Assembly (NCBI GenBank): GCA_040755235.1
Contig: JBFMBJ010000002.1
Coordinates: 1 to 46,743, forward strand
DNA length: 46,743 nt
Direction: 5' to 3'
Origin: Candidatus Omnitrophota bacterium
Lineage (GTDB): Bacteria > Omnitrophota > Gorgyraeia > Gygaellales > JBFMBJ01
The position numbers and the translations under genes are program-made. The notes beneath the pieces were generated by a model. It was not told where the DNA came from. It saw only the letters and a program-made list of their open reading frames with translations, and ran no database searches. This document shows, in pieces, positions 14,351 through 46,588 of this stretch; position 1 is the first letter of the stretch; the number at the start of each line of letters is the position of its first letter.

Positions 14351-14353
14351 ATT

Positions 14354-25483: not shown

Positions 25484-26648
25484 TGTTTAAAATCTTTTGA
25501 TAAATTTTTAAATATTCTTTAGATAAATTTTTCCAACTAAAATTTCCTGCCTCAATTTTTTTCCTTGCATTTTCTCCTAAGGTCTTTCTTAAATCCTCAT
25601 CAATTAAAAGTCTTTTTATACCTTCTGAAAGCGCTTTATCACTGCAGGGCTTAACTAATAAGCCAGTTACCCCGTCTTCGATTACCTCTGGCACTCCTCC
25701 TACCTTAGTAGCAACCACAGCCTTTCCGGCTGCCATTGCTTCTAAATTTACTATGCCGAAAGGTTCGATTCGCGAAGGCATAACAAAAAAAAGGCAATTT
25801 TTAAAAAGGTTAACTGTCTCGCTTCTATTAACCAAACCAAAGAACATCACTTTTCCATCAAGATTTAGTAATTCTTTAAATTCTCTATATATTGGCATTG
25901 CCGGACCATCTCCGGCTATTACTAAATTTATATTAAAACCGCTATCTAGGACATCTTTAAAAGCAAGGAGTGCCAAATCGAAACCTTTATAGGGAGAATC
26001 TAGTCTACCTAAACAAAGTATATATGGAAAATTTATTAGTGCTGAACCATTTTGGTCAAACTCTCTTAGATCTATACCATTATGTATAACAGTTGATTTT
26101 GTCTTTAGTTCTGGGGCTGTCTCTATTGCGCTATTAAGGAAATCTCTGGAGCAGGCAGTTATAAAACTTGCCCTCTTTAGAATTAGTCTGTAAATAATTT
26201 TAACAATAAATGCGCGGTTTCCTTTTAAGAAAGGAATGACATGATCGTGAAAACCCTGCAAAGTAATTATAAACTTTAATGGCAGGAAAAAAGAAAGTAT
26301 ATAGAGACAAAAAGCATTTAAACCTTCGTAATGAACATTTATGATTTGAATTTTATTCTTTTTTAATATCTTACTTAATTCTATTAGCGTCTTTGGCAGG
26401 CTAAAGGAAAGTTTTACAAGGTCAATTAAGCATTTAAATCCCTTTCCGGGCAATATTAAAAATGGAACATATAATCTATACACCTCTATTCCATCAACAA
26501 CCTCAAATGGCTTATATTTCTTTACTGTTAATACAACGATTATTGCCTTGTGAAGTTGGTTAGTAAATTCCTTAGCTAAGCCCCTAACTGTCTGTTCACT
26601 ACCGCCTACATCAGGTAAATAAGAATGTGTAACTATTGCTATATTCAT
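25473..26648 (-). CDS. GT4 glycosyltransferase
   Basis: 391 aa. N-terminal IAIVTHSYLPDVGGSE and the EX7E region EPFGIVNLEAMAAGKAVVATKVGGVPEVI. Confidence 0.85.
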   Translation of the reverse strand: MNIAIVTHSYLPDVGGSEQTVRGLAKEFTNQLHKAIIVVLTVKKYKPFEVVDGIEVYRLYVPFLILPGKGFKCLIDLVKLSFSLPKTLIELSKILKKNKIQIINVHYEGLNAFCLYILSFFLPLKFIITLQGFHDHVIPFLKGNRAFIVKIIYRLILKRASFITACSRDFLNSAIETAPELKTKSTVIHNGIDLREFDQNGSALINFPYILCLGRLDSPYKGFDLALLAFKDVLDSGFNINLVIAGDGPAMPIYREFKELLNLDGKVMFFGLVNRSETVNLFKNCLFFVMPSRIEPFGIVNLEAMAAGKAVVATKVGGVPEVIEDGVTGLLVKPCSDKALSEGIKRLLIDEDLRKTLGENARKKIEAGNFSWKNLSKEYLKIYQKILNNAN

Positions 26649-26657
26649 AGGATAATT

Positions 26658-27932
26658 TTATTTTGCCGGCGCTAATGCAAAATTGACAGAATGCGAAGAA
26701 ACCAGGCTTAAAATTTCTTCATTAGAAATGTTTTTAATTGGTCGGAATTCCTCATCACTGTAAAAGTAATAATAAGACTCCCACGCTCCGGCGCAAAATG
26801 TCTTTAATCTGCATTCTAGGCATTTTACAGAAAGCCGTAGCCCAGAACTTTTATATCTATGATATAGGCATCCCCCGTCGGCGTGAGAAAAATTAGTAGC
26901 TAAAACTTCGTATCTGCGGTTTATGAAATATTTCCAGTATCGGCTTTTAAATAAACATAAAGGAAACGAAGTAATTCTTACTTTTAAATTTTTTTCAATA
27001 AGGACATCTAAGGCATCCTGAATATATATAGCTGTATCTTTCAGCTTAACTCCGAGAGTTTGGATATTCTTGGCAGCATTGCCTACGTATACCAAAGATT
27101 CAAAAGCAACTCCACCAATGCCTTCGCCAGCTAAGAATTGTGCTGTGGCTTTTAAGTCTTTATAATTTTTTCTATTTATTATAAGTATAATATCAAAATT
27201 CTTAAAGCCAAGCGCCATTAAGTTCCTTATCCCACTAACAGTTTCTTTAAAGCTTCCCTGTCTCTGTGTAAGGGAATCGTGTATTTGAGCAATATGGCTG
27301 TTTAGGCAAACAATCATACCATCAAGCCCAGAGTCTATTATTTCTTTGGCAAAATTTCTATAAGAGAATCTTCTCCCATTTGTCAATAGCCAAGCAGAAA
27401 GATTTCTTTTCTTGGAGAACTCTATTAGATGCTCCAGTCCTTTGAATAAGGTGGGTTCTCCGCCTCCAAAGTGAATCTCTCTGTATTCGCTACTTAAATC
27501 TTCTATCATATGCTCTAACTCATTTAGGGAAAAATTCTTTCTCTTTGTTTTTTCTCCCCCAAAGCAGTACTCGCAATTATTATTGCAATAATAATTTGTA
27601 AAACAGAAAATCTTTCCCAGATAATGCCTGCCCTCGTTAAGGACGCCTTTATCCAAGCTACGCCTCAAGGAATATCCGATCATATCTTGATATGAATATT
27701 CTGGCTGAAAATCTAATTTAACGCTGGAATCTAACATTTTTTTTCCTAAGCAGTCGCCTTGTAGAGCTGTTTTAAGGAAATCACAACGTAGCGACTCTCT
27801 ATCTGAATAATCATCGATAAATGTGGCCTTGGTTCCGTTTGAGAATCTAATCCTATTATCATATCCTACTGTAAAAGATATGTTCGAATCTGGATGGCAA
27901 TTCATATATTTTTGCTTAAGATTAATGGGCAT
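26658..27932 (-). CDS. Radical SAM/SPASM-like enzyme with a ~110-aa N-terminal extension
   Basis: 424 aa. The cluster motif is YYCNNNCEYCF, followed by GGGEPTL, and the C-terminus has KCLECRLKTFCAGAW. It overlaps the PqqD gene upstream by 11 nt. Confidence 0.75.
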   Translation of the reverse strand: MPINLKQKYMNCHPDSNISFTVGYDNRIRFSNGTKATFIDDYSDRESLRCDFLKTALQGDCLGKKMLDSSVKLDFQPEYSYQDMIGYSLRRSLDKGVLNEGRHYLGKIFCFTNYYCNNNCEYCFGGEKTKRKNFSLNELEHMIEDLSSEYREIHFGGGEPTLFKGLEHLIEFSKKRNLSAWLLTNGRRFSYRNFAKEIIDSGLDGMIVCLNSHIAQIHDSLTQRQGSFKETVSGIRNLMALGFKNFDIILIINRKNYKDLKATAQFLAGEGIGGVAFESLVYVGNAAKNIQTLGVKLKDTAIYIQDALDVLIEKNLKVRITSFPLCLFKSRYWKYFINRRYEVLATNFSHADGGCLYHRYKSSGLRLSVKCLECRLKTFCAGAWESYYYFYSDEEFRPIKNISNEEILSLVSSHSVNFALAPAK

Positions 27933-28218
27933 AATTCATTTTTAAGATGAGCTCCTCTTTCTCCAAATCACAAAGCAGAGAAATAGCATCATTTTTCAAT
28001 TCCTCAGCGCCTATTTCTAATTTAGAACCCAAATATTCAATGATTTCTCCCAAGCTTCTCTGTTGTTCAATAAATTGCCATATCAAAGTTCCTGTCTTGT
28101 TTAGGCTATAATAAAAGCCTCTTTCTAAATGCAAAACAACTGCTTCCTGATTTATCAGACGATAACTAACCTTTGCTTTATTAATTTTAAAGCAAGTATC
28201 AATCTCTATCTTTGGCAC
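27922..28218 (-). CDS. PqqD-family RRE protein
   Basis: 98 aa. GTG start with an AAGGAGA SD 7 nt upstream. The PqqD pattern is classic: QEAVVLHLERGFYYSLNKTGTLIWQFIEQQRSLGEIIEYL...DAISLLCDLEKEELI. Confidence 0.8.
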   Translation of the reverse strand: MPKIEIDTCFKINKAKVSYRLINQEAVVLHLERGFYYSLNKTGTLIWQFIEQQRSLGEIIEYLGSKLEIGAEELKNDAISLLCDLEKEELILKMNYAH

Positions 28219-28259: not shown

Positions 28260-28376
28260 CTAAGTTACATTACCCCCTACAGCAATATCTAAGAGTTTAT
28301 ATTTTATAAGCTTGGGCTTTTCGTATTTCTCGGGGCTTTTTCTTACCTCCTTACAATTCTTCCTATCCTTTTTCAT
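28260..28376 (-). CDS. 38-aa candidate precursor peptide, absent from the ORF track
   Basis: My own translation of the minus strand: ATG at 28376, with a GGAGG SD (ccaGGAGGcataacATG) upstream. The product is MKKDRKNCKEVRKSPEKYEKPKLIKYKLLDIAVGGNVT, ending at a TAG at 28260-28262. It lies 41 nt upstream of the PqqD gene. Confidence 0.55.
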   Translation of the reverse strand: MKKDRKNCKEVRKSPEKYEKPKLIKYKLLDIAVGGNVT

Positions 28377-32627: not shown

Positions 32628-33632
32628 TTACTGACTAATACTTTGAAACTTTAAATACTTTTCTTCGGCAAAACTTTTACAAACCGGATCGCAACTTGTA
32701 AATGTCTTATTAAAAGCCCAACTCCTTGCCGGGCACCACGGACAAAATTGCCTCAGATGACAAGAATTGCATTTAAAATTTTTATCTGGTTTTAAATCCT
32801 GGATTATTTTCTTAAGTCTTTGCCAACAGCGGGCTAATGAAGTTTCTAAAATATCGAAATGAGGATAATCTATGTGTAGACACATCTTAAGAGTGCCAAA
32901 GGGGCTAATAATTAAACTATTAGTTCCTACGCCGCAGGAAAATAATCTACCATTATGCCTGCTTGTTAAAGGAGAAACAGAATTATGCTCCTTAAGACCA
33001 TCAAAAGATGTACCAGATAAAGAAGGCATAAGCAAATTGCAAATTCTCAAATTGCCTCCATAGTCAGCAGAAAATTTTTTTAATGAATTAATTTCGCCTT
33101 TGTTTTCATTTAAGTAACAAGTCTTAAAATCGAGATGGATTTTGTTTTTGCGTAAGTACTCAATAGCAGAAAAAGTTTTATTGAAAAACCCCCTCGCCCC
33201 GGTAATATGGTCAAAATTAGTTTTACTTAAAGAATTAATATTAACATCCAGACGGCTTGGCACAATCCTACCTAATTCCCGAGCTTTTTTTCTATCAACC
33301 AACGAGGCATTAGTATGTATGGAAATATTAAACCCTTTTCTTTTCGCATACCATAATATGTCAAAAATATCCTTTCTTAAGAAAACTTCTCCACCTGTAA
33401 AGCCCAAGTAAAAACAGCCCAAGTCCGACAATTCATCAAGAATAAAAAATATCTTTTTTGCATTTAATTGCCTCTGGGAAGATTCCTCTCTGTACTGCGC
33501 TGGCACATAGCAATAAACGCAATTAAAATTACATTCGTAGGTAAGTTCAAACATCGCCTGTAAAGGAAATTGCTTAACCTTAGCAGAATCCGCTAAACGC
33601 TCTCGAAAGATGTTATAGTGTTGAGACCGCAT
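32628..33632 (-). CDS. Radical SAM/SPASM enzyme (paralogue set)
   Basis: 334 aa. The cluster motif is ELTYECNFNCVYCY, followed by GFTGGEVFLR, then CGVG...GTLKMCL...CNSCHLRQFCPWCPA. Confidence 0.85.
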   Translation of the reverse strand: MRSQHYNIFRERLADSAKVKQFPLQAMFELTYECNFNCVYCYVPAQYREESSQRQLNAKKIFFILDELSDLGCFYLGFTGGEVFLRKDIFDILWYAKRKGFNISIHTNASLVDRKKARELGRIVPSRLDVNINSLSKTNFDHITGARGFFNKTFSAIEYLRKNKIHLDFKTCYLNENKGEINSLKKFSADYGGNLRICNLLMPSLSGTSFDGLKEHNSVSPLTSRHNGRLFSCGVGTNSLIISPFGTLKMCLHIDYPHFDILETSLARCWQRLKKIIQDLKPDKNFKCNSCHLRQFCPWCPARSWAFNKTFTSCDPVCKSFAEEKYLKFQSISQ

Positions 33633-34045: not shown

Positions 34046-34096
34046 TAATTTAACGGTTTATTTTAGCAATTTAACAGTTTGACAATTTAACAGTTT
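34046..34096. repeat. Three direct copies of (T/C)AATTTAAC(G/A)GTT(T)
   Basis: TAATTTAACGGTT lies at 34046-34058. CAATTTAACAGTTT lies at 34068-34081 and again at 34083-34096. The third copy overlaps the stop of the rSAM gene at 34087. Confidence 0.7.
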
Positions 34097-35163
34097 AACT
34101 TTGCTCTTTCCTGTGACATTGCCTTGGCAAACTGGCAAAAATATGGCGTGGGAGATTCTTCATTGCCAGTTTCTAAAAATGCTATTGCCGGGCAATTAAT
34201 GCAGTTCGACCTCAAAGAGCATTTCCTGCACTCAGATTTAGTTCTAAAATGTTGCTTTAGAACCTGTGGCAGTATTTCATAAAAGCCCTCTTTAAAACTC
34301 GTTGTCCTTAAATCAACGCTGAATTTATCCGAGAGCATGCAGAATTTAAGCCTGCCAAATGGGTCAATAATAAATTCTTCCATCCAGCTATTACATTGAT
34401 AGAGAAAGCCTCTTCCTCTCTTTAAACTACTTAAACTGCTGTGTAAATTTCTTTTATATTCCTGCCATATATCCAAATCTTCTTTAGCAAGGTCTGTTAA
34501 TTCTCTGAAGGAAAGCCTTAAATTACTTAACGCATTATCAAGGTTTAACCTGGGATAAAGTATCGGGTCGTATTTGAAATAATACTTATCTTTTCCTTTT
34601 CCTAAAAACTTTTCAGTAAATTCCTTTATTTTTACAATCTCATTTTTATTCTGTTTAAGCGCATTTGCCTTTAAAATGAGAGGCAATTTTCTTTCTTTTA
34701 TTTTTTTAATATTTTCCAGGGTTTTCGCAAATGAGCCGCTTACTTGGGTAACTGCCTCATATGTTGCCTGCGTAATAGCGTTTAGGGTAATCTCGATAGA
34801 AAACGGTGGGAATTTCTCAAGATAATCTAAAATTTCATCTGTGAATAAAAGGCCATTACTAAATATGGTTATAATAAAACCTTTCTTCTTAACATAGGAA
34901 TAAATTTCCAAAAAATCATTCCTTATTAATGGCTCGCCTCCGCTAAATACAAGCGAGAGGCAGCCTTCTTTAGAGAGCTGGTTAAAGATATTTCTAAATT
35001 CTTCAGATGATAATTCTTTCCCTTTCTCTTCGCAGCCTTTGCAATAACAATGTATACAATTTAGATTACATCTATAGGTAAGCTCAATATGGCCTTTCCA
35101 GGGATACTGGTCTTTTTTTCTAAACAGACTTGTAAAAAAATGCGCTGAGCTATGCGTTTTCAT
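34087..35163 (-). CDS. Radical SAM/SPASM enzyme (paralogue set)
   Basis: 358 aa. The cluster motif is ELTYRCNLNCIHCY, followed by VFSGGEPLIR, then CNSW...GRLKFCM...CRKCSLRSNCINCPA. Confidence 0.85.
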   Translation of the reverse strand: MKTHSSAHFFTSLFRKKDQYPWKGHIELTYRCNLNCIHCYCKGCEEKGKELSSEEFRNIFNQLSKEGCLSLVFSGGEPLIRNDFLEIYSYVKKKGFIITIFSNGLLFTDEILDYLEKFPPFSIEITLNAITQATYEAVTQVSGSFAKTLENIKKIKERKLPLILKANALKQNKNEIVKIKEFTEKFLGKGKDKYYFKYDPILYPRLNLDNALSNLRLSFRELTDLAKEDLDIWQEYKRNLHSSLSSLKRGRGFLYQCNSWMEEFIIDPFGRLKFCMLSDKFSVDLRTTSFKEGFYEILPQVLKQHFRTKSECRKCSLRSNCINCPAIAFLETGNEESPTPYFCQFAKAMSQERAKLNC

Positions 35164-35179
35164 CTTTTCAATTAACTGT

Positions 35180-35374
35180 TTAAGAAGAAGGGGTGTTGGG
35201 AGTTTTGGAACATGAAAATGACAGGTCGCCTTTACTTGTTCCGCAATAACTATAACTCTTCCTGCCAGTTAAAGTTCCGTATCCTGTCGTAATACAATTA
35301 CAAGTTATAACTGCCTGCTCAGGGTTGAGTTTTATGCGGGTGATTTCAGGTTCAAATTTTGGCTTTGTTGGCAT
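35180..35374 (-). CDS. Candidate RiPP precursor peptide A2 (64 aa)
   Basis: MPTKPKFEPEITRIKLNPEQAVITCNCITTGYGTLTGRKSYSYCGTSKGDLSFSCSKTPNTPSS. An AGGAGG SD lies 6 nt upstream. It is a paralogue of 36006-36200 and is flanked by maturase-type genes. Confidence 0.8.
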   Translation of the reverse strand: MPTKPKFEPEITRIKLNPEQAVITCNCITTGYGTLTGRKSYSYCGTSKGDLSFSCSKTPNTPSS

Positions 35375-35390: not shown

Positions 35391-35972
35391 CTAATTACCG
35401 AACTCTTTTAAGGCTAAATTTTTTGTTACCAAGTCATAAGTAATGACTCTCTGATATCTACTACAGTTATTATTACTAAAGTTGTTTTTTAATGAATTTA
35501 TATTTAAAAAAGGATATTTTTTAATTTCGTTTATTTGTCCGAGAATTAAATTATTTACTACGGTATTATTAATTAGATTATCGTTTGTATATAAATTCAA
35601 CAGTTCAATATCATAAATAGCTGCATCAGCAATAATCGTATGTCCTTGTTTAAGTATTGTTTTCCTTGTATCATTAATAGCGCTTTCTAATTTTTTAAGA
35701 GTACTCTCGTCAGTTACCTGGCCAAAAAAAACATTCGACACATCGCCGGTAAAAAACTCTGAAAAACAGGTTCCCTCAATACAATAAGAAACTATCTTTT
35801 GCCTGCCATCTTTAACTCTTTCTGCTATGAAAAAATTTGAATCCCTTATTTGTATGCCTCCTATATATAAACGAATCTTGTCCCTTTTTTGGTCACACCC
35901 TTCTGAAAATAAGTAAGCAGCATTAAATAAAAAAATAACACTTATTATCCCTATCCACATTTTCTTGTTCAT
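35391..35972 (-). CDS. Secreted or membrane-anchored protein of unknown function
   Basis: 193 aa. The N-terminal hydrophobic segment is MNKKMWIGIISVIFLFNAAYLF. An AAGGAG SD is present. I recognise no motif in it. Confidence 0.6.
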   Translation of the reverse strand: MNKKMWIGIISVIFLFNAAYLFSEGCDQKRDKIRLYIGGIQIRDSNFFIAERVKDGRQKIVSYCIEGTCFSEFFTGDVSNVFFGQVTDESTLKKLESAINDTRKTILKQGHTIIADAAIYDIELLNLYTNDNLINNTVVNNLILGQINEIKKYPFLNINSLKNNFSNNNCSRYQRVITYDLVTKNLALKEFGN

Positions 35973-35994: not shown

Positions 35995-36012
35995 GTCTTA
36001 ATGACTTAAGAC
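35995..36012 (-). other. 7-bp stem / 4-nt loop hairpin overlapping the stop codon of precursor A1
   Basis: GTCTTAA-TGAC-TTAAGAC on the plus strand; the stems are exact reverse complements. The stem is A/T-rich, so stability is modest. Confidence 0.4.
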
Positions 36013-36200
36013 GATGCTGTGGCAGCAACTTTCGAACATGTAAATGACAGGTCGCCTTTAGCTGTCTGACAAAGTGTATAAGATCTGCTAAGGGTATAAG
36101 TTCCATAGCCTGTCGTAATACAATTACAAGTTATGACTGCCTGCTCAGGGTTGAGTTTTATGCGGGTGATTTCAGGTTCAAATTTTGGCTTTGTTGGCAT
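36006..36200 (-). CDS. Candidate RiPP precursor peptide A1 (64 aa)
   Basis: MPTKPKFEPEITRIKLNPEQAVITCNCITTGYGTYTLSRSYTLCQTAKGDLSFTCSKVAATASS. I moved the start from 36221 to the ATG at 36200. The reasons are a GGGGGTG SD 6 nt upstream and a start and length identical to paralogue A2. Confidence 0.8.
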   Translation of the reverse strand: MPTKPKFEPEITRIKLNPEQAVITCNCITTGYGTYTLSRSYTLCQTAKGDLSFTCSKVAATASS

Positions 36201-36220: not shown

Positions 36221-37261
36221 TTAGAGATACAATAAAGCCTGTTTATAAAATTCTTCGTCTGGATTTAAGGCACAATCGTAATCAATATCTGCAAATCCTC
36301 TTTTCTCGCCACTAATAATGCCTCTTAAAAATTTAGTTTCGTTTGAACAATCATGCAAAACCACATTTTTCCACCCCTCTTTGGCTGCTACCTCAAAAAT
36401 ATTATATGTTAATTGCCTACTTTTTATCGGCGATACGTAACCTAACTTATAGCGATAAATAGTACCTTCTTTGCTAAAATTATCTTTGGTTTTAGGAAAT
36501 AACTGTAATTCTGCAAAATGTATATGGTCAACCCCAGTATCCAATATTGCCTTTTTCTTTTTCATAAAACTTTCGTAAAAGAGAGTAAACATAGGAGACT
36601 CAATGCAAAGATACTTAAAATATTTCCTTGCCTGGCTCATGTTTTTAATGACTTCTTCAGAACAGTTTGTTGCTGCCAAATTAAACCGTATTTCATCAAG
36701 GCCGGCATCTTTTAACTTTTTTAAATTTTCTTTGTTGGCAAGCAAGCCATTTGTATACAGCCATTGATGGTAGCCCAGATTATGAATGAATTTCATAAGA
36801 GGTAACATCTTATCCATATCCATCAAGGGTTCAAAATGTAACCACGCTACGCCGTTAAGGAATTTCTTAGCATGCGTTTCAAATAGCAATTCCATATCCT
36901 TTTCATTAAATAATCTCCTCGAGACCAGATACAAATCGTGGGGAATAAATTCCTGCTCCGTGGTTTCTTTCTCGCCAAAATAATAACAAAAAGAACAATT
37001 AAGATTACATTTAGTAGTAGTCCTAATCTGCGTCCATCTGCCTTTTAAGCAACAACGCTTACAACCAGGAGTTAAATCGCCATTACCCCAAACTGCAGTG
37101 TAGTCAAAATTGTCTAATTTTAAGCCAGGAATCTCCTTCTGGCGTTTTCTTATCTGCGAGATAACTTTTTTCTCTAATGCAACTTCAATTTCTAAAAGCT
37201 TTGCACCAGCTACTCTTTTTTCAAATTCAGATTCAGTCTGTTTTGGCTTTTTCCTAATCAT
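36221..37261 (-). CDS. Radical SAM enzyme without an obvious SPASM tail and with extra N-terminal cysteines
   Basis: 346 aa. The cluster motif is TTKCNLNCSFCYY, preceded by TPGCKRCCLKG. The stop lies 20 nt upstream of the precursor A1 start. Confidence 0.75.
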   Translation of the reverse strand: MIRKKPKQTESEFEKRVAGAKLLEIEVALEKKVISQIRKRQKEIPGLKLDNFDYTAVWGNGDLTPGCKRCCLKGRWTQIRTTTKCNLNCSFCYYFGEKETTEQEFIPHDLYLVSRRLFNEKDMELLFETHAKKFLNGVAWLHFEPLMDMDKMLPLMKFIHNLGYHQWLYTNGLLANKENLKKLKDAGLDEIRFNLAATNCSEEVIKNMSQARKYFKYLCIESPMFTLFYESFMKKKKAILDTGVDHIHFAELQLFPKTKDNFSKEGTIYRYKLGYVSPIKSRQLTYNIFEVAAKEGWKNVVLHDCSNETKFLRGIISGEKRGFADIDYDCALNPDEEFYKQALLYL

Positions 37262-37281: not shown

Positions 37282-38895
37282 TTAAACTAACTCCTGCTTA
37301 GCTCCTAATTGCCTTAAAAAACTATCTGCCTTTATATCTATTCTTTTCCTTAGAATTTGGGGCAACTCAACCCTACCATATTTATGATAGTAGAAACCAG
37401 CGAATTCCTTAAACAATCCAGTAAGTTTAATCAGGGCTACTATGTTTAATGCCTTATTCAATTTTCCATCTCCCTGCTCGCTTTCAGATTTTTTGTTTAA
37501 CTCTGAAAATATTGAGTAAGCCCAAGGGTGGTTTAAACTTAACCAGGAATCTAATGCCACACAGATGTCAGAAAATCTTCTTGAAAGCGAATCAGATAAC
37601 AGGTAGATTACTTCTTTAAAAAACTCATTGCCAAATACATAAAGTAGCATAAATTTTAGATTGTCCATCCTCTCTAATTCTTCTTTGCCGAAAGTATTTG
37701 CTTGTAATACAAAATGGGGTGCTTTTTTTTCATATTTGATTTTGAATTCTTTAGCATAGTTGCGTAAATATGTCCCTGGTAAAAGCATTAATTTCGGTAT
37801 TTCAATCGAGGGCGGCTTTAAACTGCAAACCCAATTAATAGATTTCTTAAAAGATGAGTAATTGTCTCCTGGCAGACCTTCGATTATCTGAATTACATAA
37901 TTTATTTTCTTTTTATTAAGTAAGCCGATATTTTGCTTAAAACGAACTGGGCTGAAATCGCGCTTAACCAAAGCCAGTGCTTTTCTATTTGTACTTTGTA
38001 GGCCTATCTCTAAGAAACCAACTCCTGCTTTAGAAAGAAGTTCAATTAGCTCCTTATCCAATAGTTCTGCTTTTAATTCAACGTGAAGATGAGAATCTTT
38101 CTTATGTTTAATAAAGAAGCGCAATATTTCCTTTGACCTATCAATTTTTAAATTAAATGTCGGGTCCATCAAGTATATGATCTTAATATTTTTACTTAAT
38201 AAATATCTTAATTCCTCCTTTACTCTTTGCATGGAAAAGAATCTTACGCCCCAGAATTGTTTATGATAATAACAATAACGGCAACTAAAAGTGCAGCCTC
38301 GCATTGTCTCTAAACAGGCATCTTTCTTGTTAACTTTAATTGTCCCGCTTAAGTATGGAGAAGGTATGGTGTCTAAGTTTTGAATTTGTGCGCGAAAAGG
38401 AGTTTCAATAACATTGCCGTTATTTCTATAACAAAGGCCCTTGATCTTCGACAAATCTCTGCTATCATTAAGCCATGAGTCAACAAGCTCCTTAAAGGTC
38501 TCTTCTCCTTCATTTATCACAACAGCATCTATTAGCGGTTCAGCCCTTAGCAGGTTTTTTGCCTGGGCTGAAACTTCTGGACCGCCTAAAACAATCTTAA
38601 GATAAGGGAAATTGCGTTTCAGTAACCGCACTATCTCTAAGGTTTTATCAATATTCCAGACATAACAGGAAAACCCTAGCATATGAGGCTTGAGTCTGGC
38701 TAATTTAAAAGTTATCGCCTCATTAGAATCAAAAATAGAAAAAGTCTGAATCTTAATGTCAACTAATTTAGAGAACTCACTATATCTTGAAAAATAGACC
38801 TTTAGATAAGATAGGGCAAGCTCTTTATATCTATCTTTGAGATATAAGCTGACTAAAATGATTCTTTTCTTCTGCCGACTTACCTTTTTAATCAT
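37282..38895 (-). CDS. B12-binding-domain radical SAM enzyme (class B, methyltransferase-like)
   Basis: 537 aa. The N-terminus has a B12-like domain (RIILVSL...LGFSCYVWN...LGGPEV), followed by MRGCTFSCRYCYY. Confidence 0.8.
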   Translation of the reverse strand: MIKKVSRQKKRIILVSLYLKDRYKELALSYLKVYFSRYSEFSKLVDIKIQTFSIFDSNEAITFKLARLKPHMLGFSCYVWNIDKTLEIVRLLKRNFPYLKIVLGGPEVSAQAKNLLRAEPLIDAVVINEGEETFKELVDSWLNDSRDLSKIKGLCYRNNGNVIETPFRAQIQNLDTIPSPYLSGTIKVNKKDACLETMRGCTFSCRYCYYHKQFWGVRFFSMQRVKEELRYLLSKNIKIIYLMDPTFNLKIDRSKEILRFFIKHKKDSHLHVELKAELLDKELIELLSKAGVGFLEIGLQSTNRKALALVKRDFSPVRFKQNIGLLNKKKINYVIQIIEGLPGDNYSSFKKSINWVCSLKPPSIEIPKLMLLPGTYLRNYAKEFKIKYEKKAPHFVLQANTFGKEELERMDNLKFMLLYVFGNEFFKEVIYLLSDSLSRRFSDICVALDSWLSLNHPWAYSIFSELNKKSESEQGDGKLNKALNIVALIKLTGLFKEFAGFYYHKYGRVELPQILRKRIDIKADSFLRQLGAKQELV

Positions 38896-39806
38896 CTCTT
38901 CAAAGAAATCCCCCTTACAAACTCAATCATCTCTTTATCGTTTTTAAACCCTAATTTAAAACAGGGAACTTCTTTTGTTAACTGCGACGAAAATCTGATA
39001 GCATTGCCTATGCCTTTTCTATCCCAAAAGGTATGAAACGTGCAGGGATACAAAAGATTAAATGCCTTAACAGTTGGTACTAATTGGAAGGAATTAAATT
39101 TTGAGTGCTCGAGGAAAAAAACAGAGTTTAAATCAGTTGTTTCTATCTTAGAGATAAGATAGTCAGTGAATTCGCCGTGCCAAGGACAACCATAAATTAA
39201 GAATTTATCTTTATTCTTTCTAATAATAATTCTATCATCGTTTAACACTGTTGCCTCACTAAACTTATGCCAGATTCTCGCTGTAGTTGATTTGCCGTCG
39301 CCTGATTTGCCTACAAATAAGAGCCCCCTTTTATCAATATCTTTCATGCCTACTGCGTGGACAAAGATGCCGTCCCGACCTGTTATATAATTTATCAGAA
39401 TTACCTGAAGCGCATCGTAGATAATATCCTCTGGTTTCCAAGAACCATCAGCATCGGCCGTAGTTTTATAATAAACCTTTCCTCGGGTGAAATCCTGGTT
39501 AAGAAAAATCTCATGTATTTTACTTACAACAAATGTCGCTAATATAAATAAACCATTGCTTTTATACAAAGCCCAGTTTTTTTCGTTTGTGGCAGGATGG
39601 CGAGTTAGAAAAATTCTTTTCTTACTAAACTTGACTTTTGGTAATTGATTAACTACTTCTATTGTCAAAACAATTTGCGCTCGCTTTTTGCCTTTATAAA
39701 TAAAGTTACAAAAACGCCAACTTATTTTCTCGTTAATTGGCTGCATGGGAAATTTACTCTTTAGTTCTATTATTATGTCAGCAATCTTTAGTTTTAGAGT
39801 AGTCAT
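38892..39806 (-). CDS. HPr-kinase-related P-loop protein
   Basis: 304 aa. FVHAVGMKDIDKRGLLFVGKSGDGKSTTARIW...VLNDDRIII matches the HprK/P core pattern. The gene overlaps both neighbours. Confidence 0.65.
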   Translation of the reverse strand: MTTLKLKIADIIIELKSKFPMQPINEKISWRFCNFIYKGKKRAQIVLTIEVVNQLPKVKFSKKRIFLTRHPATNEKNWALYKSNGLFILATFVVSKIHEIFLNQDFTRGKVYYKTTADADGSWKPEDIIYDALQVILINYITGRDGIFVHAVGMKDIDKRGLLFVGKSGDGKSTTARIWHKFSEATVLNDDRIIIRKNKDKFLIYGCPWHGEFTDYLISKIETTDLNSVFFLEHSKFNSFQLVPTVKAFNLLYPCTFHTFWDRKGIGNAIRFSSQLTKEVPCFKLGFKNDKEMIEFVRGISLKR

Positions 39807-40854
39807 CAGACACCAAACTCGCCATTTCGCACCACCATTTTATTGGTGCTTCTAAATCGCCTGTTTCAAGATATGCATCGCCTGGACAAGTAAAGCAGTG
39901 CTTTTTTAACTGGCAAAACCTGCACTTTGAATCTGTAACATATCCTCTTTGTCTCATATCTCTAAAGACAATAAGGGCCTCTTCAATAGGGGAAGTTAAA
40001 ATATCAGAACATTCATTCCTCAGAAAAGGACAGAACAATATCTGTCCATAAGGAGTTAGGGTCAAGCTACTCCCGCAACCTGCCGAACAGTAGAAGGGAG
40101 AATCTTCTTGATTTGCCTTCCCATCAGACCTTGAGCATTCCTTAAAGAAACTTAATTGGGGGTCTACCTGCTTATTAATTAAAAGGGCTTCCCTTGGGCT
40201 TAGACGCAAGGAACAAGGAAACTGCTCATTATTAAGGCGTGCTCTAATATAAAAATCCGGAAAAAATTTAAGATTTAAACTTTCTACGAATCTCCTTATC
40301 TGCCAAATTTCTTTCACATTATCATTTATCAATATTGTTTTAATTTTTAAAGGCATCTTGTTCTTAATCAATAGCCTTAAGCCCTGCATTGACTTAGAAA
40401 AACTATCTTTAAGCCCAGAGATTTCTTCAAAAGTATCTTTTCTAATAGAATTCAGAGTGATCTCAATAACAAAAGGCGGTTTTTTTTGCAGGCGCTTAAC
40501 AATTTCTTCATTTATAGAATATGAGGTAGTAAATATAGTAATGATAAAACCCAATTTCTTAGCATAATCATAAATTTCGAAGAAATCTTCCCTTGCCAAT
40601 GGGTCTCCGCCAGTAAAACAAAGCCAGATGACCCCGAGCAGATAAAGTCTATCCAAGGTAGATTTAACCTGCTCTGTAGATAATTCTTTTTTAATAAGTT
40701 CTTTTTTGTTGTAACAGTCGCTATAACAGTATTTGCAATGGAAATCACATTTAAAGGTTAGTTCAAACTGACAGAGGTTTACACTACCGCTTTGCCAGTT
40801 TCTTTGGTGGGTTTTTAAGCTAAAGTCCTTATACTGAAGTTCTTTCATATACAA
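39778..40854 (-). CDS. Radical SAM/SPASM enzyme (paralogue set)
   Basis: 358 aa. The cluster motif is ELTFKCDFHCKYCY, followed by CFTGGDPLAR, then CSAGCGSS...GQILFCP...CRFCQLKKHCFTCPG. Confidence 0.85.
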   Translation of the reverse strand: MYMKELQYKDFSLKTHQRNWQSGSVNLCQFELTFKCDFHCKYCYSDCYNKKELIKKELSTEQVKSTLDRLYLLGVIWLCFTGGDPLAREDFFEIYDYAKKLGFIITIFTTSYSINEEIVKRLQKKPPFVIEITLNSIRKDTFEEISGLKDSFSKSMQGLRLLIKNKMPLKIKTILINDNVKEIWQIRRFVESLNLKFFPDFYIRARLNNEQFPCSLRLSPREALLINKQVDPQLSFFKECSRSDGKANQEDSPFYCSAGCGSSLTLTPYGQILFCPFLRNECSDILTSPIEEALIVFRDMRQRGYVTDSKCRFCQLKKHCFTCPGDAYLETGDLEAPIKWWCEMASLVSDDYSKTKDC

Positions 40855-40863
40855 TTTAGCAGT

Positions 40864-41181
40864 TTAAATAACCGCCTTTATCTCTTTCAAGTCTTTAAAA
40901 AGACTTTTTAGTTCTCTTTCGGCCTCTTTCTCATTTGTGTCAAATTCTTTTAACATCTTATCTTTTATGTTATCTATTGAATTTTTACCATCTATCATAT
41001 CCCAGATACGAGAAGCACAATTATTTAAAGTGTAGATGCAGTTAAGATCGTCAGAGGCCTTAAAGATCGGCACTAAGATGGTTTCTCCTTCTATTTTTCT
41101 GGTAACCATATCAGGATTTTTCTTAAATACTAAAGAATCAGATAAGTCAATTGCACTTTTTTTTAATGTTTTTTTCTGCAT
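40864..41181 (-). CDS. PqqD-family RRE protein; first gene of the long minus-strand operon
   Basis: 105 aa. The PqqD pattern is VTRKIEGETILVPI...CIYTLNNCASRIWDMIDGKNSIDNIKDKMLKEF...ELKSLFKDLKEIKAV. A G-rich SD is present. Confidence 0.8.
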   Translation of the reverse strand: MQKKTLKKSAIDLSDSLVFKKNPDMVTRKIEGETILVPIFKASDDLNCIYTLNNCASRIWDMIDGKNSIDNIKDKMLKEFDTNEKEAERELKSLFKDLKEIKAVI

Positions 41182-41444: not shown

Positions 41445-42920
41445 ATGCTCAAACAATTAAGAAATAAGAAAACTGCTAAGAGAATATTCTTTTTTCTGGC
41501 GCTTATTATTGTGCCGGCATTTGTGCTCTGGGGCTCTGGAAGCCTTATCCGTGACAAGTCAAAATCTAATTTTGCCGGAGAAATATTCGGAAAAAAAGTT
41601 CCTATCGATGTCTACCGCGATTGCCTAATGGCAGTTCGCGACCAGGCAATAATCCAATTCGGTGAAAATTTCAATCAAATTCAGGGCATGTTGAATTTAG
41701 AAGAGCGCGCCTGGGAAAGATTGATACTTCTAACTAAGGCAAAACAGGAAAAAATCCGGATAAGCGACAAAGAAGTTGTAGAACAAATTGCTGACTTTCC
41801 TTTTTTTCAAAAAGACGGTAAATTTAACGAGCAAATCTACCAACAGGTGTTGCGCTATGGTTTAGGTACCACTGCGAAGATATTTGAACAACATATCCGG
41901 GAATCACTGATGATTAGCGAGCTATTCAAAAAAGCCACCCAAAATATCATTATCACCGACGAAGAGGTGTTAAGTGAGTTTAAAAGAGAAAATGAGAAAA
42001 TTAAAGTTGCCTTAATCGCTTTTAATAATAGAGACTTTGAGGTTGAGGTTTCAGCCAGTCCAGAAGAGACAAAGGATTATTTTGATAAAAATAAGGAGAA
42101 TTTCCTCTTGCCCGCTTCTATAAATATCGAATATATTGGCGCTAATCTGAGCCCTGATTCGACTGCGGAGCAAAAACAAGAGGCAAAAGACAAGCTTAGT
42201 TCTATTTTGGAACTTGCTAAAAAGGACAACGATTGGAAGGCATTGAGCGAAAAAAGCAATCTTACCTTTAAAAATACCGGTCTTTTCAGCATAGAAGAGC
42301 CTATCCCAGGGATTGGCTGGTCTAATGAGTTTTTCCAGGCAATTTTACCATTAAAGCCGGGCGAGGTGAGTGATATTATTGCAACTGAGGCAGGCTTTTT
42401 CTTGGCAAGGTTATTAGAGAAAGTCGAGCCGCGAATACCTGAATTTTCCGAAGTAGAGAATAAAGTTAGCCAAGAGATAAAAAAGGAAAAGGCAAAAGAA
42501 TTATCGCTGGCTAAGGCAGAAAATTTTAAGAAAATAATTGAAGAGAAATTAAAACAAGATAAGGTATCTGAATTCAAAAAAATAGCTAATGAGTTAAATC
42601 TTAAAACGAGCGAGACTGACTTTTTTAAAAGGAGTCAATATATCGATAATATTGGAATGTCTTTTGAATTTTCTCAAAAAGCATTTTCCCTCTTAGATAA
42701 ACCTTCGGCGTTGGAAACTGTTACTACACCACAGGCAAGTTATATAATGAAATTGGCAGGCGTAATGCAAGTCGATATGGAAACTTTTAAGAAAGAAAAT
42801 GTTGGATATCGCGGGAAACTTGCGGCGGGAAAAAAAGAAGAGGCATTTTTTAGTTTAGTACAAAAATTAAAAAACGAAGCACACCTTAAAAGTTATATTA
42901 CAAATATCACTCCACCTTAA
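41445..42920 (+). CDS. PpiD/SurA-like periplasmic chaperone
   Basis: The start is trimmed from 41406 to 41445, based on the SD and because the -10 box would otherwise lie inside the ORF. The N-terminus MLKQLRNKKTAKRIFFFLALIIVPAFVLWGSG is the PpiD-type anchor. A long helical, Lys/Glu-rich chaperone-like body follows. Confidence 0.55.
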   Translation: MLKQLRNKKTAKRIFFFLALIIVPAFVLWGSGSLIRDKSKSNFAGEIFGKKVPIDVYRDCLMAVRDQAIIQFGENFNQIQGMLNLEERAWERLILLTKAKQEKIRISDKEVVEQIADFPFFQKDGKFNEQIYQQVLRYGLGTTAKIFEQHIRESLMISELFKKATQNIIITDEEVLSEFKRENEKIKVALIAFNNRDFEVEVSASPEETKDYFDKNKENFLLPASINIEYIGANLSPDSTAEQKQEAKDKLSSILELAKKDNDWKALSEKSNLTFKNTGLFSIEEPIPGIGWSNEFFQAILPLKPGEVSDIIATEAGFFLARLLEKVEPRIPEFSEVENKVSQEIKKEKAKELSLAKAENFKKIIEEKLKQDKVSEFKKIANELNLKTSETDFFKRSQYIDNIGMSFEFSQKAFSLLDKPSALETVTTPQASYIMKLAGVMQVDMETFKKENVGYRGKLAAGKKEEAFFSLVQKLKNEAHLKSYITNITPP

Positions 42921-43086
42921 TTGCTTCAACCGGACACTGGCTGGCAACCTCTTTTAAATCGCAAGTGCTACAATTTTGTTTTATCACGTGTGCTATATTA
43001 TCATCCTGCATCTTAAAGACCTCAGGGCAGGACTGTTCGCATAAACCGCAACCCACGCAAGTGCTTGCATCAACAGTTACCTTCAT
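42907..43086 (-). CDS. Small 4Fe-4S ferredoxin (59 aa), absent from the ORF track
   Basis: My own translation: MKVTVDASTCVGCGLCEQSCPEVFKMQDDNIAHVIKQNCSTCDLKEVASQCPVEAIKVE. It has a CxxCxxC...CP motif plus a distal CP. A GGAGGAG SD lies upstream. The 3' end overlaps the convergent PpiD-like gene by 14 nt. Confidence 0.75.
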   Translation of the reverse strand: MKVTVDASTCVGCGLCEQSCPEVFKMQDDNIAHVIKQNCSTCDLKEVASQCPVEAIKVE

Positions 43087-44461: not shown

Positions 44462-45334
44462 TTAAACCTTTAGATTATATCTTTTAATGTTTGCATCAGC
44501 CACAGCCTGAACTTTGGCTAATTCTTCTCTGGATTGGAGGAGATGTTTAAATCTACCTTGGAGTTTTAAATATTCTTCAACTGGTTTAGGGAGAGATAGT
44601 TTTTTTGTCACATTTAACTTGCCGTTCTCAAATTCTACCAAAGGATAAAGGCCGGTCTCCACAGCAAGCCTTCCTATTTCTAGAGTCACAGATGGCTCAT
44701 AACGCCAACCTAATGGACAAGGAACATGGATTTGAATATATTTAGGCCCTTTTATTGATATGGCTTTTTTTATCTTCTTAGTTAAATCCAGTGCGAAACT
44801 TGCTGAAGCAGTGGCAACATAAGGAATACCGTGTGCTAACGCAATTTCCGGCATAGGCTTCTTGTATTTCGGGTTACCAAAAGACTGTTTGCCAGATGGA
44901 GTAGTAGTAGTGTTGGCATCAAAAGGTGTAAGGCCACTACGCTGTACACCGGTATTTTCATACGCCTCATTATCATAACAGATGCTCAAAATATCATGTC
45001 CCCTCTCCCACATTCCTGAAAGTGCCTGTAAGCCAATATCAGCAGTTCCTCCGTCTCCTGCCTGGCATATTACAGTTGTACCTTCTTTTTTGCCAAGATA
45101 TGTCAATGCTGCTTCAATGCCAGAGGCAACTGCTGCAGCATTTTCAAATAAAGAATGTATCCATGGAATATTCCAGCAAGACTCTGGATAAGGAGTTGAA
45201 AAAACCTCAAGGCATCCGGTGTTATTAGCAATAATAGTCTTTTCGCCGGTAGTCTCAACCACTAAGCGCGCTGCTATTGCCTGTCCGCATCCAGCACAGG
45301 CAGAATGTCCAGAAGTAAATAAAGGCTTATTCAT
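44462..45334 (-). CDS. 2-oxoacid:ferredoxin oxidoreductase beta subunit (TPP-binding; PorB/KorB type)
   Basis: 290 aa. It has the N-terminal CAGCG, and the TPP motif GDGGTADIGLQALSG...NEAYENTG. Confidence 0.85.
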   Translation of the reverse strand: MNKPLFTSGHSACAGCGQAIAARLVVETTGEKTIIANNTGCLEVFSTPYPESCWNIPWIHSLFENAAAVASGIEAALTYLGKKEGTTVICQAGDGGTADIGLQALSGMWERGHDILSICYDNEAYENTGVQRSGLTPFDANTTTTPSGKQSFGNPKYKKPMPEIALAHGIPYVATASASFALDLTKKIKKAISIKGPKYIQIHVPCPLGWRYEPSVTLEIGRLAVETGLYPLVEFENGKLNVTKKLSLPKPVEEYLKLQGRFKHLLQSREELAKVQAVADANIKRYNLKV

Positions 45335-45338
45335 TTTT

Positions 45339-45378
45339 TTATTCGCGTGTATTCGCGTTGGATTAGCGACTATTCGCG
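45339..45378. repeat. Helically phased direct repeats of TATTCGCGT in the alpha-beta intergenic spacer
   Basis: TATTCGCGT occurs at 45339, 45349 and 45370. A degenerate copy, GATTAGCGA, lies at 45360. The spacing is 10-11 bp. Confidence 0.8.
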
Positions 45379-45391
45379 TTTGATAAATATT

Positions 45392-46588
45392 TCAGATGTC
45401 TTTAAAATCTTCGCTTAGCAGTTCTTTCTTTACGCCGATAAATTGGCAAGGATCTTCTTTCCCTGCTAATCTATCGAAAATTTGCCTGATATCTGTCTTT
45501 GTAATATCCCTGCCGCCTAAGCCAATAACAAATCCGCTTACCTTCTTCTTTGAGTCATTTGGTAAACATGATTTTATATCAGCATATAGCGGCCCTGAAG
45601 AACCCAGGGAAATGGATTTTTCTACAATACCAACATTTGCAATCTTAGTCAGACAGTTTCTTATTGCGTCTGCAGGGAACGGCCTATAGGTTATTACCTT
45701 TACAGCACCTACCTTTTTCCCTTCAGAACGCAATTCATCTACAGTGTCCTTAATCGTCCCGATGAGTGAACCTTTGGCAACTAAACAAAAATCAGCATCT
45801 TCGGTTTTATAAGTCTCAATCAACCCGCCCCTCTCCCTGCCAAAAATCTTTTTAAATTCACTGCTAATCTCAGGGATAATGCTTAAACAATCATTCATAG
45901 TCTCCTGGATAGCAAAACGTGCCTCCATATAATAATCAGGTCCGGCTAAAAATCCTAAAGTCATAGGATTATCTACGTCCAATTTGAATAAAGGGTTGTA
46001 GGTGGGCAAGAATTTGTCCGTTTGTTCTTGGGTAGGCAAATCTACTACTTCCAGGCCGTGGGTTAGAATATAACCGTCCATGTTTACCATTACCGGCAAA
46101 TAAACTCTTTTGTCTTCAGCCAGACGATATGCCTGGATGTGTAAATCTACTACATCCTGCATATCCTCTGCCCAAAGCTGAATCCAGCCGCTATCGCGCA
46201 CAGTTACTGCATCCTGATGATCATTCCAGATATTTATTGGAGCAGATACCGCTCGGTTTGTGCAGGTTAACACCAAAGGCAGTCGCATACCTGCTATATT
46301 AAACAAGACCTCTACCATCAAGAGTAAACCCTGAGAACTCGTGGCTGTAAAAGACCGCACACCAGTTGCACAGGCGCCCAACACAACACTAGCTGCTGAA
46401 TGCTCGCTTTCAACATTAATAAACTGCGCATTCAACTGGCCATCAGCAACCATCTGAGCTAACTCTTCGACAATATGAGTCTGCGGCGTAATCGGATAGG
46501 CTGAAATTACACCTGGCTTACACAATTGAACCGCTTTAGCAACTGCTTGAGAGCCTTCGAGGAATTGTTTCATTTTTAATGAGACCAC
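45392..46588 (-). CDS. 2-oxoacid:ferredoxin oxidoreductase alpha subunit (PorA/KorA type)
   Basis: 398 aa. The N-terminus reads FLEGSQAVAKAVQLCKPGVISAYPITPQT. Its length fits the alpha subunit of four-subunit enzymes. The true start may be the ATG at 46573 (MKQFLEG). Confidence 0.85.
   Translation of the reverse strand: MVSLKMKQFLEGSQAVAKAVQLCKPGVISAYPITPQTHIVEELAQMVADGQLNAQFINVESEHSAASVVLGACATGVRSFTATSSQGLLLMVEVLFNIAGMRLPLVLTCTNRAVSAPINIWNDHQDAVTVRDSGWIQLWAEDMQDVVDLHIQAYRLAEDKRVYLPVMVNMDGYILTHGLEVVDLPTQEQTDKFLPTYNPLFKLDVDNPMTLGFLAGPDYYMEARFAIQETMNDCLSIIPEISSEFKKIFGRERGGLIETYKTEDADFCLVAKGSLIGTIKDTVDELRSEGKKVGAVKVITYRPFPADAIRNCLTKIANVGIVEKSISLGSSGPLYADIKSCLPNDSKKKVSGFVIGLGGRDITKTDIRQIFDRLAGKEDPCQFIGVKKELLSEDFKDI

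Follow-up and report, generated by a model that had tools for sequence, protein, structure and literature searches.

A predicted peptide-tailoring kinase of the PEPCK/HprK fold in a radical SAM RiPP locus of Candidatus Omnitrophota

The closest described systems to the one presented here tailor peptides of ribosomal synthesis and post-translational modification (RiPPs) with HprK-like kinases. In lasso-peptide biosynthesis, it has been shown that PadeK, ThcoK, SyanK and PsmK phosphorylate the conserved C-terminal Ser of their precursor and, by mutagenesis, that a His-Lys-Asp-Asp set of residues is essential in these kinases; a conserved C-terminal Ser has likewise been reported for the precursors of kinase-encoding lasso clusters (PMC9266682). 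In pseudomycoidin, where the Asp pair of PsmK is D158/D159, the NTP_transf_5-type enzyme PsmN installs one or two hexoses on the phosphoserine (PMC6993621). A second set of systems, the linear polyphosphorylated peptides (LPPs; LppK/LppB/LppS/LppN/LppD) published in 2026, has been described as linear peptides restricted to Bacillota and encoded in capsule loci without radical S-adenosylmethionine (SAM) enzymes; their clusters hold a kinase, an NTP-transferase, a signal peptidase I, a RiPP recognition element and an MsbA-like protein without a lasso cyclase, and LppS removes the leader (PMC13381572). In these peptides, the C-termini are variable and LppK targets Ser3 in the conserved FETxxS motif which closes the leader signature YxxPxVLxHQxIxFETxxS (PMC13381572). 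Here we analyzed a 46,743-nucleotide stretch of a Candidatus Omnitrophota bacterium (contig JBFMBJ010000002.1, positions 1 to 46,743; the whole of this stretch is called the window below), in which an HprK-like kinase gene, KIN1 (38892-39806), lies in one operon with radical SAM genes and two precursor genes, A1 and A2.

On balance, KIN1 is probably the peptide-tailoring kinase of a radical SAM-modified RiPP pathway, phosphorylating the C-terminal Ser64 of A1 and A2 in concert with downstream tailoring and export. This would extend lasso-type C-terminal Ser kinase chemistry to a large, unstudied group of radical SAM-modified peptides; in the literature searched, no description was found of an HprK-like kinase in a radical SAM RiPP pathway, nor of this system. 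C-terminal phospho-tailoring had been predicted by a sequence-only reading of the window, and this prediction is supported in every part open to computation, by the fold and catalytic residues of the kinase, its synteny and the conserved C-terminal Ser/Thr of the precursors. Forty-four plausible genes were scanned in the window against Pfam and NCBIfam, the minus strand carrying nearly all of them (GC content 29-40%). The operon is tightly packed and reads in the order PqqD1, radical SAM/SPASM, KIN1, B12-radical SAM, radical SAM, A1, a 193-aa open reading frame (ORF), A2 and radical SAM/SPASM. Its features, with the SPASM gene that follows, are:

40864-41181, minus strand: PqqD1, a PqqD-type RiPP recognition element and the first gene of the operon (PF05402, 5.9e-11; lasso_PqqD_Bac, 6e-7)
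39778-40854, minus strand: SPASM_A, a radical SAM/SPASM maturase (Pfam, NCBIfam), whose 3' end shares 29 nt with the start of the kinase gene
38892-39806, minus strand: KIN1, a P-loop kinase of the HprK/PEPCK fold, very likely of the ScmC family PF27840 (homologues, fold model, conserved residues)
37282-38895, minus strand: a B12-binding radical SAM enzyme resembling KedN5-like C-methyltransferases (Pfam/NCBIfam), with a 4-nt overlap with the kinase stop
36221-37261, minus strand: a radical SAM enzyme of 346 aa without a SPASM match in Pfam or NCBIfam
36006-36200, minus strand: precursor A1, 64 aa, MPTKPKFEPEITRIKLNPEQAVITCNC...KVAATASS, its start reassigned to the Met after a GGGGTG ribosome-binding site
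35391-35972, minus strand: an ORF of 193 aa with a hydrophobic N-terminus, between A1 and A2 (ORF call)
35180-35374, minus strand: precursor A2, 64 aa, ending ...KTPNTPSS, with a GGAGG ribosome-binding site
34087-35163, minus strand: SPASM_B, a radical SAM/SPASM maturase and the best conserved partner of the kinase (Pfam/NCBIfam, synteny)
32628-33632, minus strand: SPASM_C, a radical SAM/SPASM maturase syntenic with the kinase in most Omnitrophota loci

KIN1 encodes 304 aa from an ATG start and, since more than 170 homologues were found at 42-53% identity (E down to 1e-101), it is a real gene. Almost all these proteins come from Candidatus Omnitrophota, the closest ones exclusively from metagenome-assembled genomes (MAGs) of this phylum. 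In the local Pfam, the protein gave only a weak AAA_33 match and, in NCBIfam, sub-threshold matches to HprK_rel_B (3.6e-5) and ScmC (1.6e-3). Because searches of PDB sequences returned only non-significant, P-loop-level matches, the fold had to be sought by structure prediction. An AlphaFold2 model computed from 26 homologues (pLDDT 87.9, pTM 0.86) was used as a Foldseek query, which returned only ATP-dependent phosphoenolpyruvate carboxykinases (PEPCK) and HPr kinase/phosphorylase (HprK/P) structures, with 1oen at 1e-6, 1knx at 7e-6 and 1kkl at 1.8e-5 (TM 0.52, normalized on the HprK domain as target); the HprK/P structures 1knx, 1kkl, 1ko7 and 1kkm were matched at E 7e-6 to 2e-4. The model, which aligns over its full length with PEPCK and not with HprK, thus assigns KIN1 to the PEPCK/HprK-type P-loop kinase fold.

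The catalytic set is intact. KIN1 contains the Walker A motif GKSGDGKST (K172), preceded by H150 and followed by D190-D191; among 80 homologues from all phyla sampled, H150, K172 and D190 are each conserved in 80/80 and D191 in 79/80. These residues match the His-Lys-Asp-Asp set of the lasso kinases and the Asp pair of PsmK. In addition, a homologue from a Nitrospiraceae MAG (L044) aligns with Staphylococcus xylosus HprK/P (1ko7) across the His, Walker A and Asp-Asp segment. Sequence and model therefore identify KIN1 as an HprK-superfamily kinase whose active site is intact, and the earlier placing of such a kinase in the precursor operon, coordinates included, was correct.

Regarding its family, PF27840 (ScmC) is precomputed on most of the homologues at 42-53% identity, which makes membership of KIN1 in this Pfam family very likely. 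The TIGR04249 ScmC equivalog has a cutoff of 125 bits, well above the 17.8 bits of KIN1 and the 41.7 bits at most of its relatives. A profile of KIN1 run against 1.84 billion cluster representatives retrieved 620 clusters (50% identity) at E<=1e-30 and 5,333 at E<=1e-10. Fusions with a GNAT acetyltransferase or with a class-I methyltransferase occur in some ScmC-type relatives, and others carry an N-terminal extension of ~160 aa without a recognizable domain (e.g., P0127, 538 aa; P0211, 652 aa; L088/L089:6902-8293).

The candidate acceptor is best seen in the precursors. A1 and A2 each contain four Cys and end in ...ATASS and ...NTPSS, respectively, in agreement with the Ser-Ser ends previously noted. 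A hidden Markov model of the leader finds this precursor family in almost every locus, and related precursors come from more than 10 phyla. The Omnitrophota-type leader reads MxxKxKFxPxITRVKLNPEQAVL and that of other phyla KKxYxKPxIxxVxLxxEEAVL, the latter with the YxxPx[I/L] motif of lasso peptides and LPPs in 31/33; common to both are Pro -15, Ile -13, Val -10, Leu -8 and the final [E/Q]-A-V-L. The cores are hypervariable save for Cys residues (three or four per core, with CxC or CK just past the leader) and the C-terminus. Among the 93 non-redundant precursors of kinase-anchored loci, 76 end in Ser, 11 in Thr and 6 in neither, the last being truncated ORFs of 35-48 aa; the background frequency of C-terminal Ser in the same loci is 9-11%. 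In the precursors that are not of the Omnitrophota type, the end is Gly-Ser in 33/36 and Gly-Thr in 3/36. In order to remove ascertainment through the kinase, metagenome contigs were scanned by the leader alone, and this precursor-anchored sample gave a Ser/Thr C-terminus in 78/85 further non-redundant precursors. The exceptions over both samples (6 + 7) are mostly truncated ORFs of 35-56 aa.

When 164 non-redundant cores were pooled, Ser/Thr was the last residue in 158 (96%), i.e., 126/131 of the Omnitrophota type and 32/33 of the other type. At any other core position, Ser/Thr reaches 62% at most, which leaves the C-terminal hydroxyl residue as the only conserved candidate acceptor. A terminal Ser is also seen in orphan precursors distant from any cluster: four of type A (L143:9371-9643, L146:4987-5247, L157:9992-10198 and L090:3273-3473) lack homologues of all window maturase genes over 7-10 kb on either side, and the first of them lies in a ribosomal-protein and dnaB neighborhood of a high-GC genome. 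Truncated copies of 38-43 aa also occur beside full-length precursors (L005:4618-4734, L010:2576-2692, L016:8920-9051, L133:858-974). Their leader is intact and their core shortened; most of the precursors without a terminal Ser are of this kind, and they look like decaying paralogues.

Synteny ties the kinase to the same type of pathway across phyla. One genome per species was scanned, giving 381 KIN1 relatives, of which 80 loci were kept and the window proteins mapped onto them. Alongside the kinase, radical SAM/SPASM genes occur in 78/80 loci, PqqD in 60/80 (46/53 among loci of >=12 kb) and NTP_transf_5 in 50/80, and an ABC exporter is often present, in line with the radical SAM-modified scaffold proposed earlier. 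In Omnitrophota and Elusimicrobia, SPASM enzymes number two or three per module and precursors one to five, and a Woesearchaeota (archaeal) bin carries this module rather than the compact one. The compact unit of six genes, found in Desulfobacterota, Nitrospirota, Nitrospinota, Aminicenantes, Acidobacteriota, WOR-3, KSB1, Chloroflexota and Clostridia bins, is ordered as PqqD, one radical SAM/SPASM enzyme, a precursor of ~45-70 aa, the kinase, a signal-peptidase-I protein of 150-170 aa and NTP_transf_5. The non-Omnitrophota precursor gene lies <=350 bp upstream of the kinase in 33/36 cases (Desulfobacterota, Nitrospirota, Nitrospinota, Aminicenantes and others). Directly after the kinase come the signal-peptidase-I gene (TIGR02228, 65 bits, above cutoff) and then the NTP_transf_5 gene (PF14907 at 1e-44 to 1e-46), and in 18 loci one or the other abuts or overlaps the kinase stop.

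In the window, these last two functions are joined. Both NTP_transf_5 proteins, whose assignment in the sequence-only reading is confirmed by domain matches, bear an N-terminal domain resembling archaeal-type signal peptidase I (TIGR02228 1.2e-7 and 2.3e-11) which is a separate gene directly after the kinase in other phyla. The fusion, read from sequence, would link leader removal to phosphate decoration. The exporter and the first of the two fusions are:

18724-20511, minus strand: MsbA/HlyB-like ABC exporter, with orthologues directly after KIN1 and SPASM_A in L024, L025 and L027
17022-18740, minus strand: NTP_transf_5 protein (7e-33) with an N-terminal signal-peptidase-I-like domain (Ser-box GDSMYP and His-Arg-box IHR; nucleotidyltransferase motif SADIDF)

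Orthologues of this exporter, then of this fusion, directly follow the kinase in L024, L025 and L027, and for this reason the two are the likely cognate pair of KIN1, parted from it in the window by inserted modules.

The following pathway can be proposed. A1 and A2 would be bound by the PqqD-type recognition element through the conserved leader KFxPxITRIKLNPEQAV, and their Cys-rich cores, with four Cys each, would be cross-linked and methylated by the radical SAM/SPASM and B12-radical SAM enzymes of the operon. KIN1 would then phosphorylate the side-chain hydroxyl of Ser64 in an ATP-dependent manner, possibly several times, with catalysis by Walker A K172, H150 and D190/D191. The NTP_transf_5 domain would add a hexose or a nucleotidyl group to the phosphate, the fused signal-peptidase-I-like domain would remove the leader and the MsbA-like ABC transporter would export the product. 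Gene content, fold, active-site residues, synteny and the conserved terminal hydroxyl are observations, and the phosphorylation and where it falls, the succession of steps, what NTP_transf_5 attaches and the reactions of the radical SAM enzymes are inferred.

Compared with lasso tailoring, where the kinase acts on the leader-bearing precursor, the system shares an HprK-like kinase with the His-Lys-Asp-Asp set, a conserved C-terminal Ser, a discrete PqqD-type element and an NTP_transf_5 partner, which in pseudomycoidin adds hexose to phosphoserine. It differs by its Cys-rich scaffold and up to ten radical SAM enzymes, by its hosts, Omnitrophota and other anaerobic phyla, and by its kinase, which belongs to a different, very distant subfamily (ScmC, PF27840), the likeness being drawn from the published motif. 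Neither an Asn-synthase-type lasso cyclase nor a transglutaminase-type B2 protease is among the 44 window genes scanned, as the sequence-only reading had stated (related loci were searched only for homologues of window proteins). With the LPPs, a five-gene core is common: archaeal-type signal peptidase I, discrete recognition element, HprK-like kinase, NTP transferase and MsbA-like exporter. This full set is present in the window, the peptidase domain being fused to NTP_transf_5. Both systems lack a macrolactam cyclase and lie in surroundings rich in polysaccharide and glycosyltransferase genes, and the YxxPx[I/L] motif recurs in 31/33 non-Omnitrophota leaders. In contrast to LPPs, there are radical SAM maturases and a fused peptidase-NTP transferase here, the conserved hydroxyl is that of the C-terminal residue, and the FETxxS motif is absent from the leaders of both types (KFxPxITRVKLNPEQAVL and YxKPxIxxVxLxxEEAVL). 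By its leader and acceptor motifs, its radical SAM maturases, its lack of lasso cyclase and B2 protease and its taxonomy, the system falls outside the LPP and lasso classes.

A further parallel in gene content is the SynChlorMet (Scm) cassette (TIGR04248-04251, ScmC-F; PF27840), in which a PqqD homologue, radical SAM/SPASM proteins and an ScmC-type protein occur together. The cassette is reportedly defined only in silico, with no precursor assigned and, to our knowledge, ScmC is a conserved hypothetical protein without an assigned function. The window contains a PqqD homologue with radical SAM/SPASM proteins (PqqD1, SPASM_A/B/C), and close KIN1 homologues carry PF27840. KIN1 and its relatives, at 17.8-41.7 bits, score far below the ScmC equivalog cutoff; the system is a sister of SynChlorMet. 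Similarly, sactipeptide and ranthipeptide systems use PqqD-type recognition and radical SAM/SPASM enzymes on Cys-containing cores, and models of the StsB, AlbA and PapB type are matched below cutoff by the window SPASM proteins, at 1e-14 to 1e-28. We know of no member of these classes with a kinase, NTP_transf_5, a signal-peptidase module or a conserved C-terminal Ser.

Several other explanations were weighed, and they are taken here in decreasing weight: an internal acceptor, elimination with amidation or cyclization, a polysaccharide-directed kinase and a bona fide HprK. It is unlikely, although this is the strongest competitor, that KIN1 phosphorylates an internal Ser/Thr and that the terminal Ser is kept for recognition by, e.g., a radical SAM enzyme, the exporter or the peptidase. 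LppK, from the sole characterized non-lasso system with this gene set, does target Ser3, a phosphorylation needed for leader cleavage (PMC13381572), and the cores are rich in hydroxyls, with a Ser/Thr content of 21% in those of the Omnitrophota type; positions +1 and +3 after the leader hold Ser/Thr in 51% and 35%, respectively. No internal position exceeds the 62% given above, against 96-97% at the C-terminus in both precursor types, and the best that other-type cores provide is 61% Thr at +5. A transient phosphorylation, leading by elimination to a C-terminal dehydroalanine and then to a C-terminal amide (a sacrificial Ser), or serving as leaving group for cyclization, is less probable still. 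In thiopeptides, the conversion of a C-terminal dehydroalanine to an amide is well established. A small residue is conserved at the penultimate position (Gly in 30/33 other-type cores, Ser/Ala in 86/131 Omnitrophota-type cores), as would suit processing there once the last residue is gone. However, neither the window nor the compact loci of other phyla contain a recognizable lyase or elimination domain, and the conserved neighbor of the kinase is NTP_transf_5, which extends the phosphate in pseudomycoidin (PMC6993621).

The window is embedded in a large exopolysaccharide locus, a pair of genes for an XrtA/PEP-CTERM-type ATPase and an HD-domain protein recurs near the module, and PEPCK-fold kinases can act on small molecules; KIN1 and NTP_transf_5 might thus act on the exopolysaccharide or on a lipid-linked sugar, their co-location with precursors being incidental. 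This is very improbable, as the kinase of compact loci sits between the precursor and the leader-peptidase gene, adjoined by no polysaccharide-type gene of the window (only homologues of the window's own proteins were searched), and is translationally coupled to radical SAM genes in the window; moreover, all characterized relatives with the His-Lys-Asp-Asp set act on peptides or proteins (PMC9266682). That KIN1 is a genuine HPr kinase/phosphorylase of carbon catabolite control is effectively refuted. The two share the fold of the C-terminal kinase domain, the Walker A consensus GxSGxGKS, a preceding His and a following Asp-Asp. Nevertheless, KIN1 has no family-level match to TIGR00679 or PF07475 in Pfam or NCBIfam (sub-threshold matches occur only in relatives, L044 to TIGR00679 at 3.2e-5 and P0211 at 2.8e-5), its N-terminal domain differs, its model aligns full-length on PEPCK instead of HprK, no HPr or phosphotransferase-system gene is among the 44 window genes, and the RiPP-type synteny is invariant in 80 loci. 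With no family-level match, no HPr partner and synteny of another kind, KIN1 is not a genuine HPr kinase. Both the HprK/P and the exopolysaccharide-directed assignments were rejected on synteny.

The assignment of KIN1 to C-terminal phosphorylation has nonetheless to accommodate several points that weigh against it. KIN1 is only distantly related to the characterized kinases, falls far under the NCBIfam cutoffs for every HprK-related model and has no significant PDB-sequence match even by profile search; the function proposed for its family is a prediction from sequence, model and analogy. In the nearest non-lasso system published, LppK acts on core residue Ser3, near the leader junction, and not on the C-terminus, it does not accept Thr, and LppN had no detectable activity (PMC13381572). 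In the present family, 11/93 kinase-anchored precursors end in Thr, and two full-length precursors lack a terminal Ser/Thr (L097:6856-7116, ...HNA; L119:4571-4879, ...TTN). The long loci with radical SAM genes all encode the kinase except L107, where a Ser-ending precursor is present and a kinase is missing over 14 kb. A distance of 14-20 kb separates the NTP_transf_5 genes of the window from KIN1. Finally, all loci hold radical SAM enzymes besides the kinase, so conservation of the C-terminal Ser is not assignable to the kinase by presence or absence.

The window contains a second HprK-like gene and a further precursor, organized as follows:

21440-21724, plus strand: PqqD3, a PqqD-like recognition element paired with KIN2 (domain scan, synteny)
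21732-22640, plus strand: KIN2, a distant HprK-like (HprK_rel_A-like) kinase with H127, K148, D165 and E166 (HprK_rel_A 7.5e-16, below cutoff)
22652-24313, minus strand: the second fusion of a signal-peptidase-I-like domain (GQSMMP, VHR) with NTP_transf_5 (GDIDLL; 2.5e-42), convergent with KIN2
24314-25483, minus strand: radical SAM/SPASM enzyme of the type-B module (domain scan)
25473-26648, minus strand: GT4 of the type-B module (domain scan)
26658-27932, minus strand: radical SAM enzyme of the type-B module (domain scan)
27922-28218, minus strand: PqqD2, of the type-B precursor module
28260-28376, minus strand: third precursor, type B, 38 aa, MKKDRKNCKEVRKSPEKYEKPKLIKYKLLDIAVGGNVT, with a YxxPxL leader motif, upstream of PqqD2

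Both HprK-like genes named in the sequence-only reading were found, but they are only distantly related. By hhalign, the KIN1 and KIN2 families match in 36 columns around the P-loop only and hence are not treatable as one family. Only three homologues of KIN2 were found, one with PF07475 (Hpr_kinase_C); PDB sequences gave it non-significant, P-loop-level matches only, and its AlphaFold2 model from a 4-sequence alignment (pLDDT 45) was not used for fold search. The KIN2 module, ABC(-), PqqD(+), kinase(+), signal-peptidase-I-NTP_transf_5(-), radical SAM/SPASM(-) and a glycosyltransferase, recurs in L081-L083, and L082 has a KIN1-type gene 7 kb from it. KIN1 and KIN2 belong to separate modules, a point which the sequence-only reading had missed, along with the signal-peptidase domain on both NTP_transf_5 proteins and the third precursor at 28260-28376. 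This unannotated ORF sits in a 176-bp gap upstream of PqqD2 and has the leader motif YEKPKL, resembling lasso and LPP leaders. Equivalents were found upstream of the PqqD2 orthologue in L021, L022, L160 and L082, and their C-terminus is not conserved. Probably it represents another type of precursor, the second here, on which the PqqD2, radical SAM, GT4 and SPASM module acts.

As for the rest of the window, positions 1-13.2 kb form an exopolysaccharide locus with glycosyltransferases, Wzx, Wzy, Wzc, Wza, a deacetylase, methyltransferases and a B12-radical SAM gene. The region 15.3-41.2 kb carries radical SAM genes, three PqqD-type recognition elements, two HprK-like genes, two NTP_transf_5 genes, the MsbA-like ABC exporter, glycosyltransferases, methyltransferases and a GNAT gene. 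Overall, ten radical SAM genes (span 3345-40854; three B12-binding, five SPASM-type and two others) stand against only three small precursor genes. The 193-aa ORF (35391-35972) matched neither Pfam nor NCBIfam, and no homologue was found across the ~160 fetched loci; it could encode a protein for immunity or an accessory one, or be an insertion specific to the lineage. A gene for a '23S rRNA intervening sequence protein' (four-helix bundle, PF05635; 33666-34043, minus strand) lies inside the RiPP cluster and recurs between SPASM genes in L003, L005, L018, L082, L109, L114 and L138. The HD_5-domain gene and AAA_22 ATPase pair (13226-15196, minus strand; TIGR03015 XrtA/PEP-CTERM-associated ATPase, 231 bits, below cutoff) has counterparts near the kinase module in about one quarter of loci, in Omnitrophota, Desulfobacterota, Aminicenantes and others. 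The cluster is flanked by a small 4Fe-4S ferredoxin gene (42907-43086, minus strand) and pyruvate:ferredoxin-oxidoreductase-type subunits (44462-46588, minus strand), which could supply reducing equivalents to the radical SAM enzymes or be unrelated housekeeping genes. Rfam and tRNA scans of the window found nothing.

A more speculative and rather doubtful idea is that the C-terminal phosphoserine is an attachment point, through a phosphodiester started by NTP_transf_5, for a glycan made by the surrounding glycosyltransferase and Wzx/Wzy/Wza/Wzc machinery. If so, Omnitrophota and other phyla would make ribosomally encoded, radical SAM-cross-linked peptide-polysaccharide conjugates, i.e., a capsule-like polymer primed or capped by a peptide, which would be a molecular class without a description so far.

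The predicted role of KIN1 in C-terminal phosphorylation is of interest mainly for RiPP specialists, its central chemistry being a prediction from genes and models. It provides a genome-mining rule: a leader ending in ...[E/Q]AVL, Cys early in the core (CxC or CK), a C-terminal Ser and an adjoining ScmC-type kinase. The system also connects to the newly described LPPs and to polysaccharide loci. If the prediction is true, it would give a concrete function to the ScmC family, with its 620 clusters at E<=1e-30 and 5,333 at E<=1e-10, and C-terminal Ser (poly)phosphorylation or phospho-glycosylation would no longer be confined to lasso peptides or to Bacillota. In more than 10 mostly uncultivated phyla and an archaeal bin, this phospho-module would be combined with radical SAM cross-linking.

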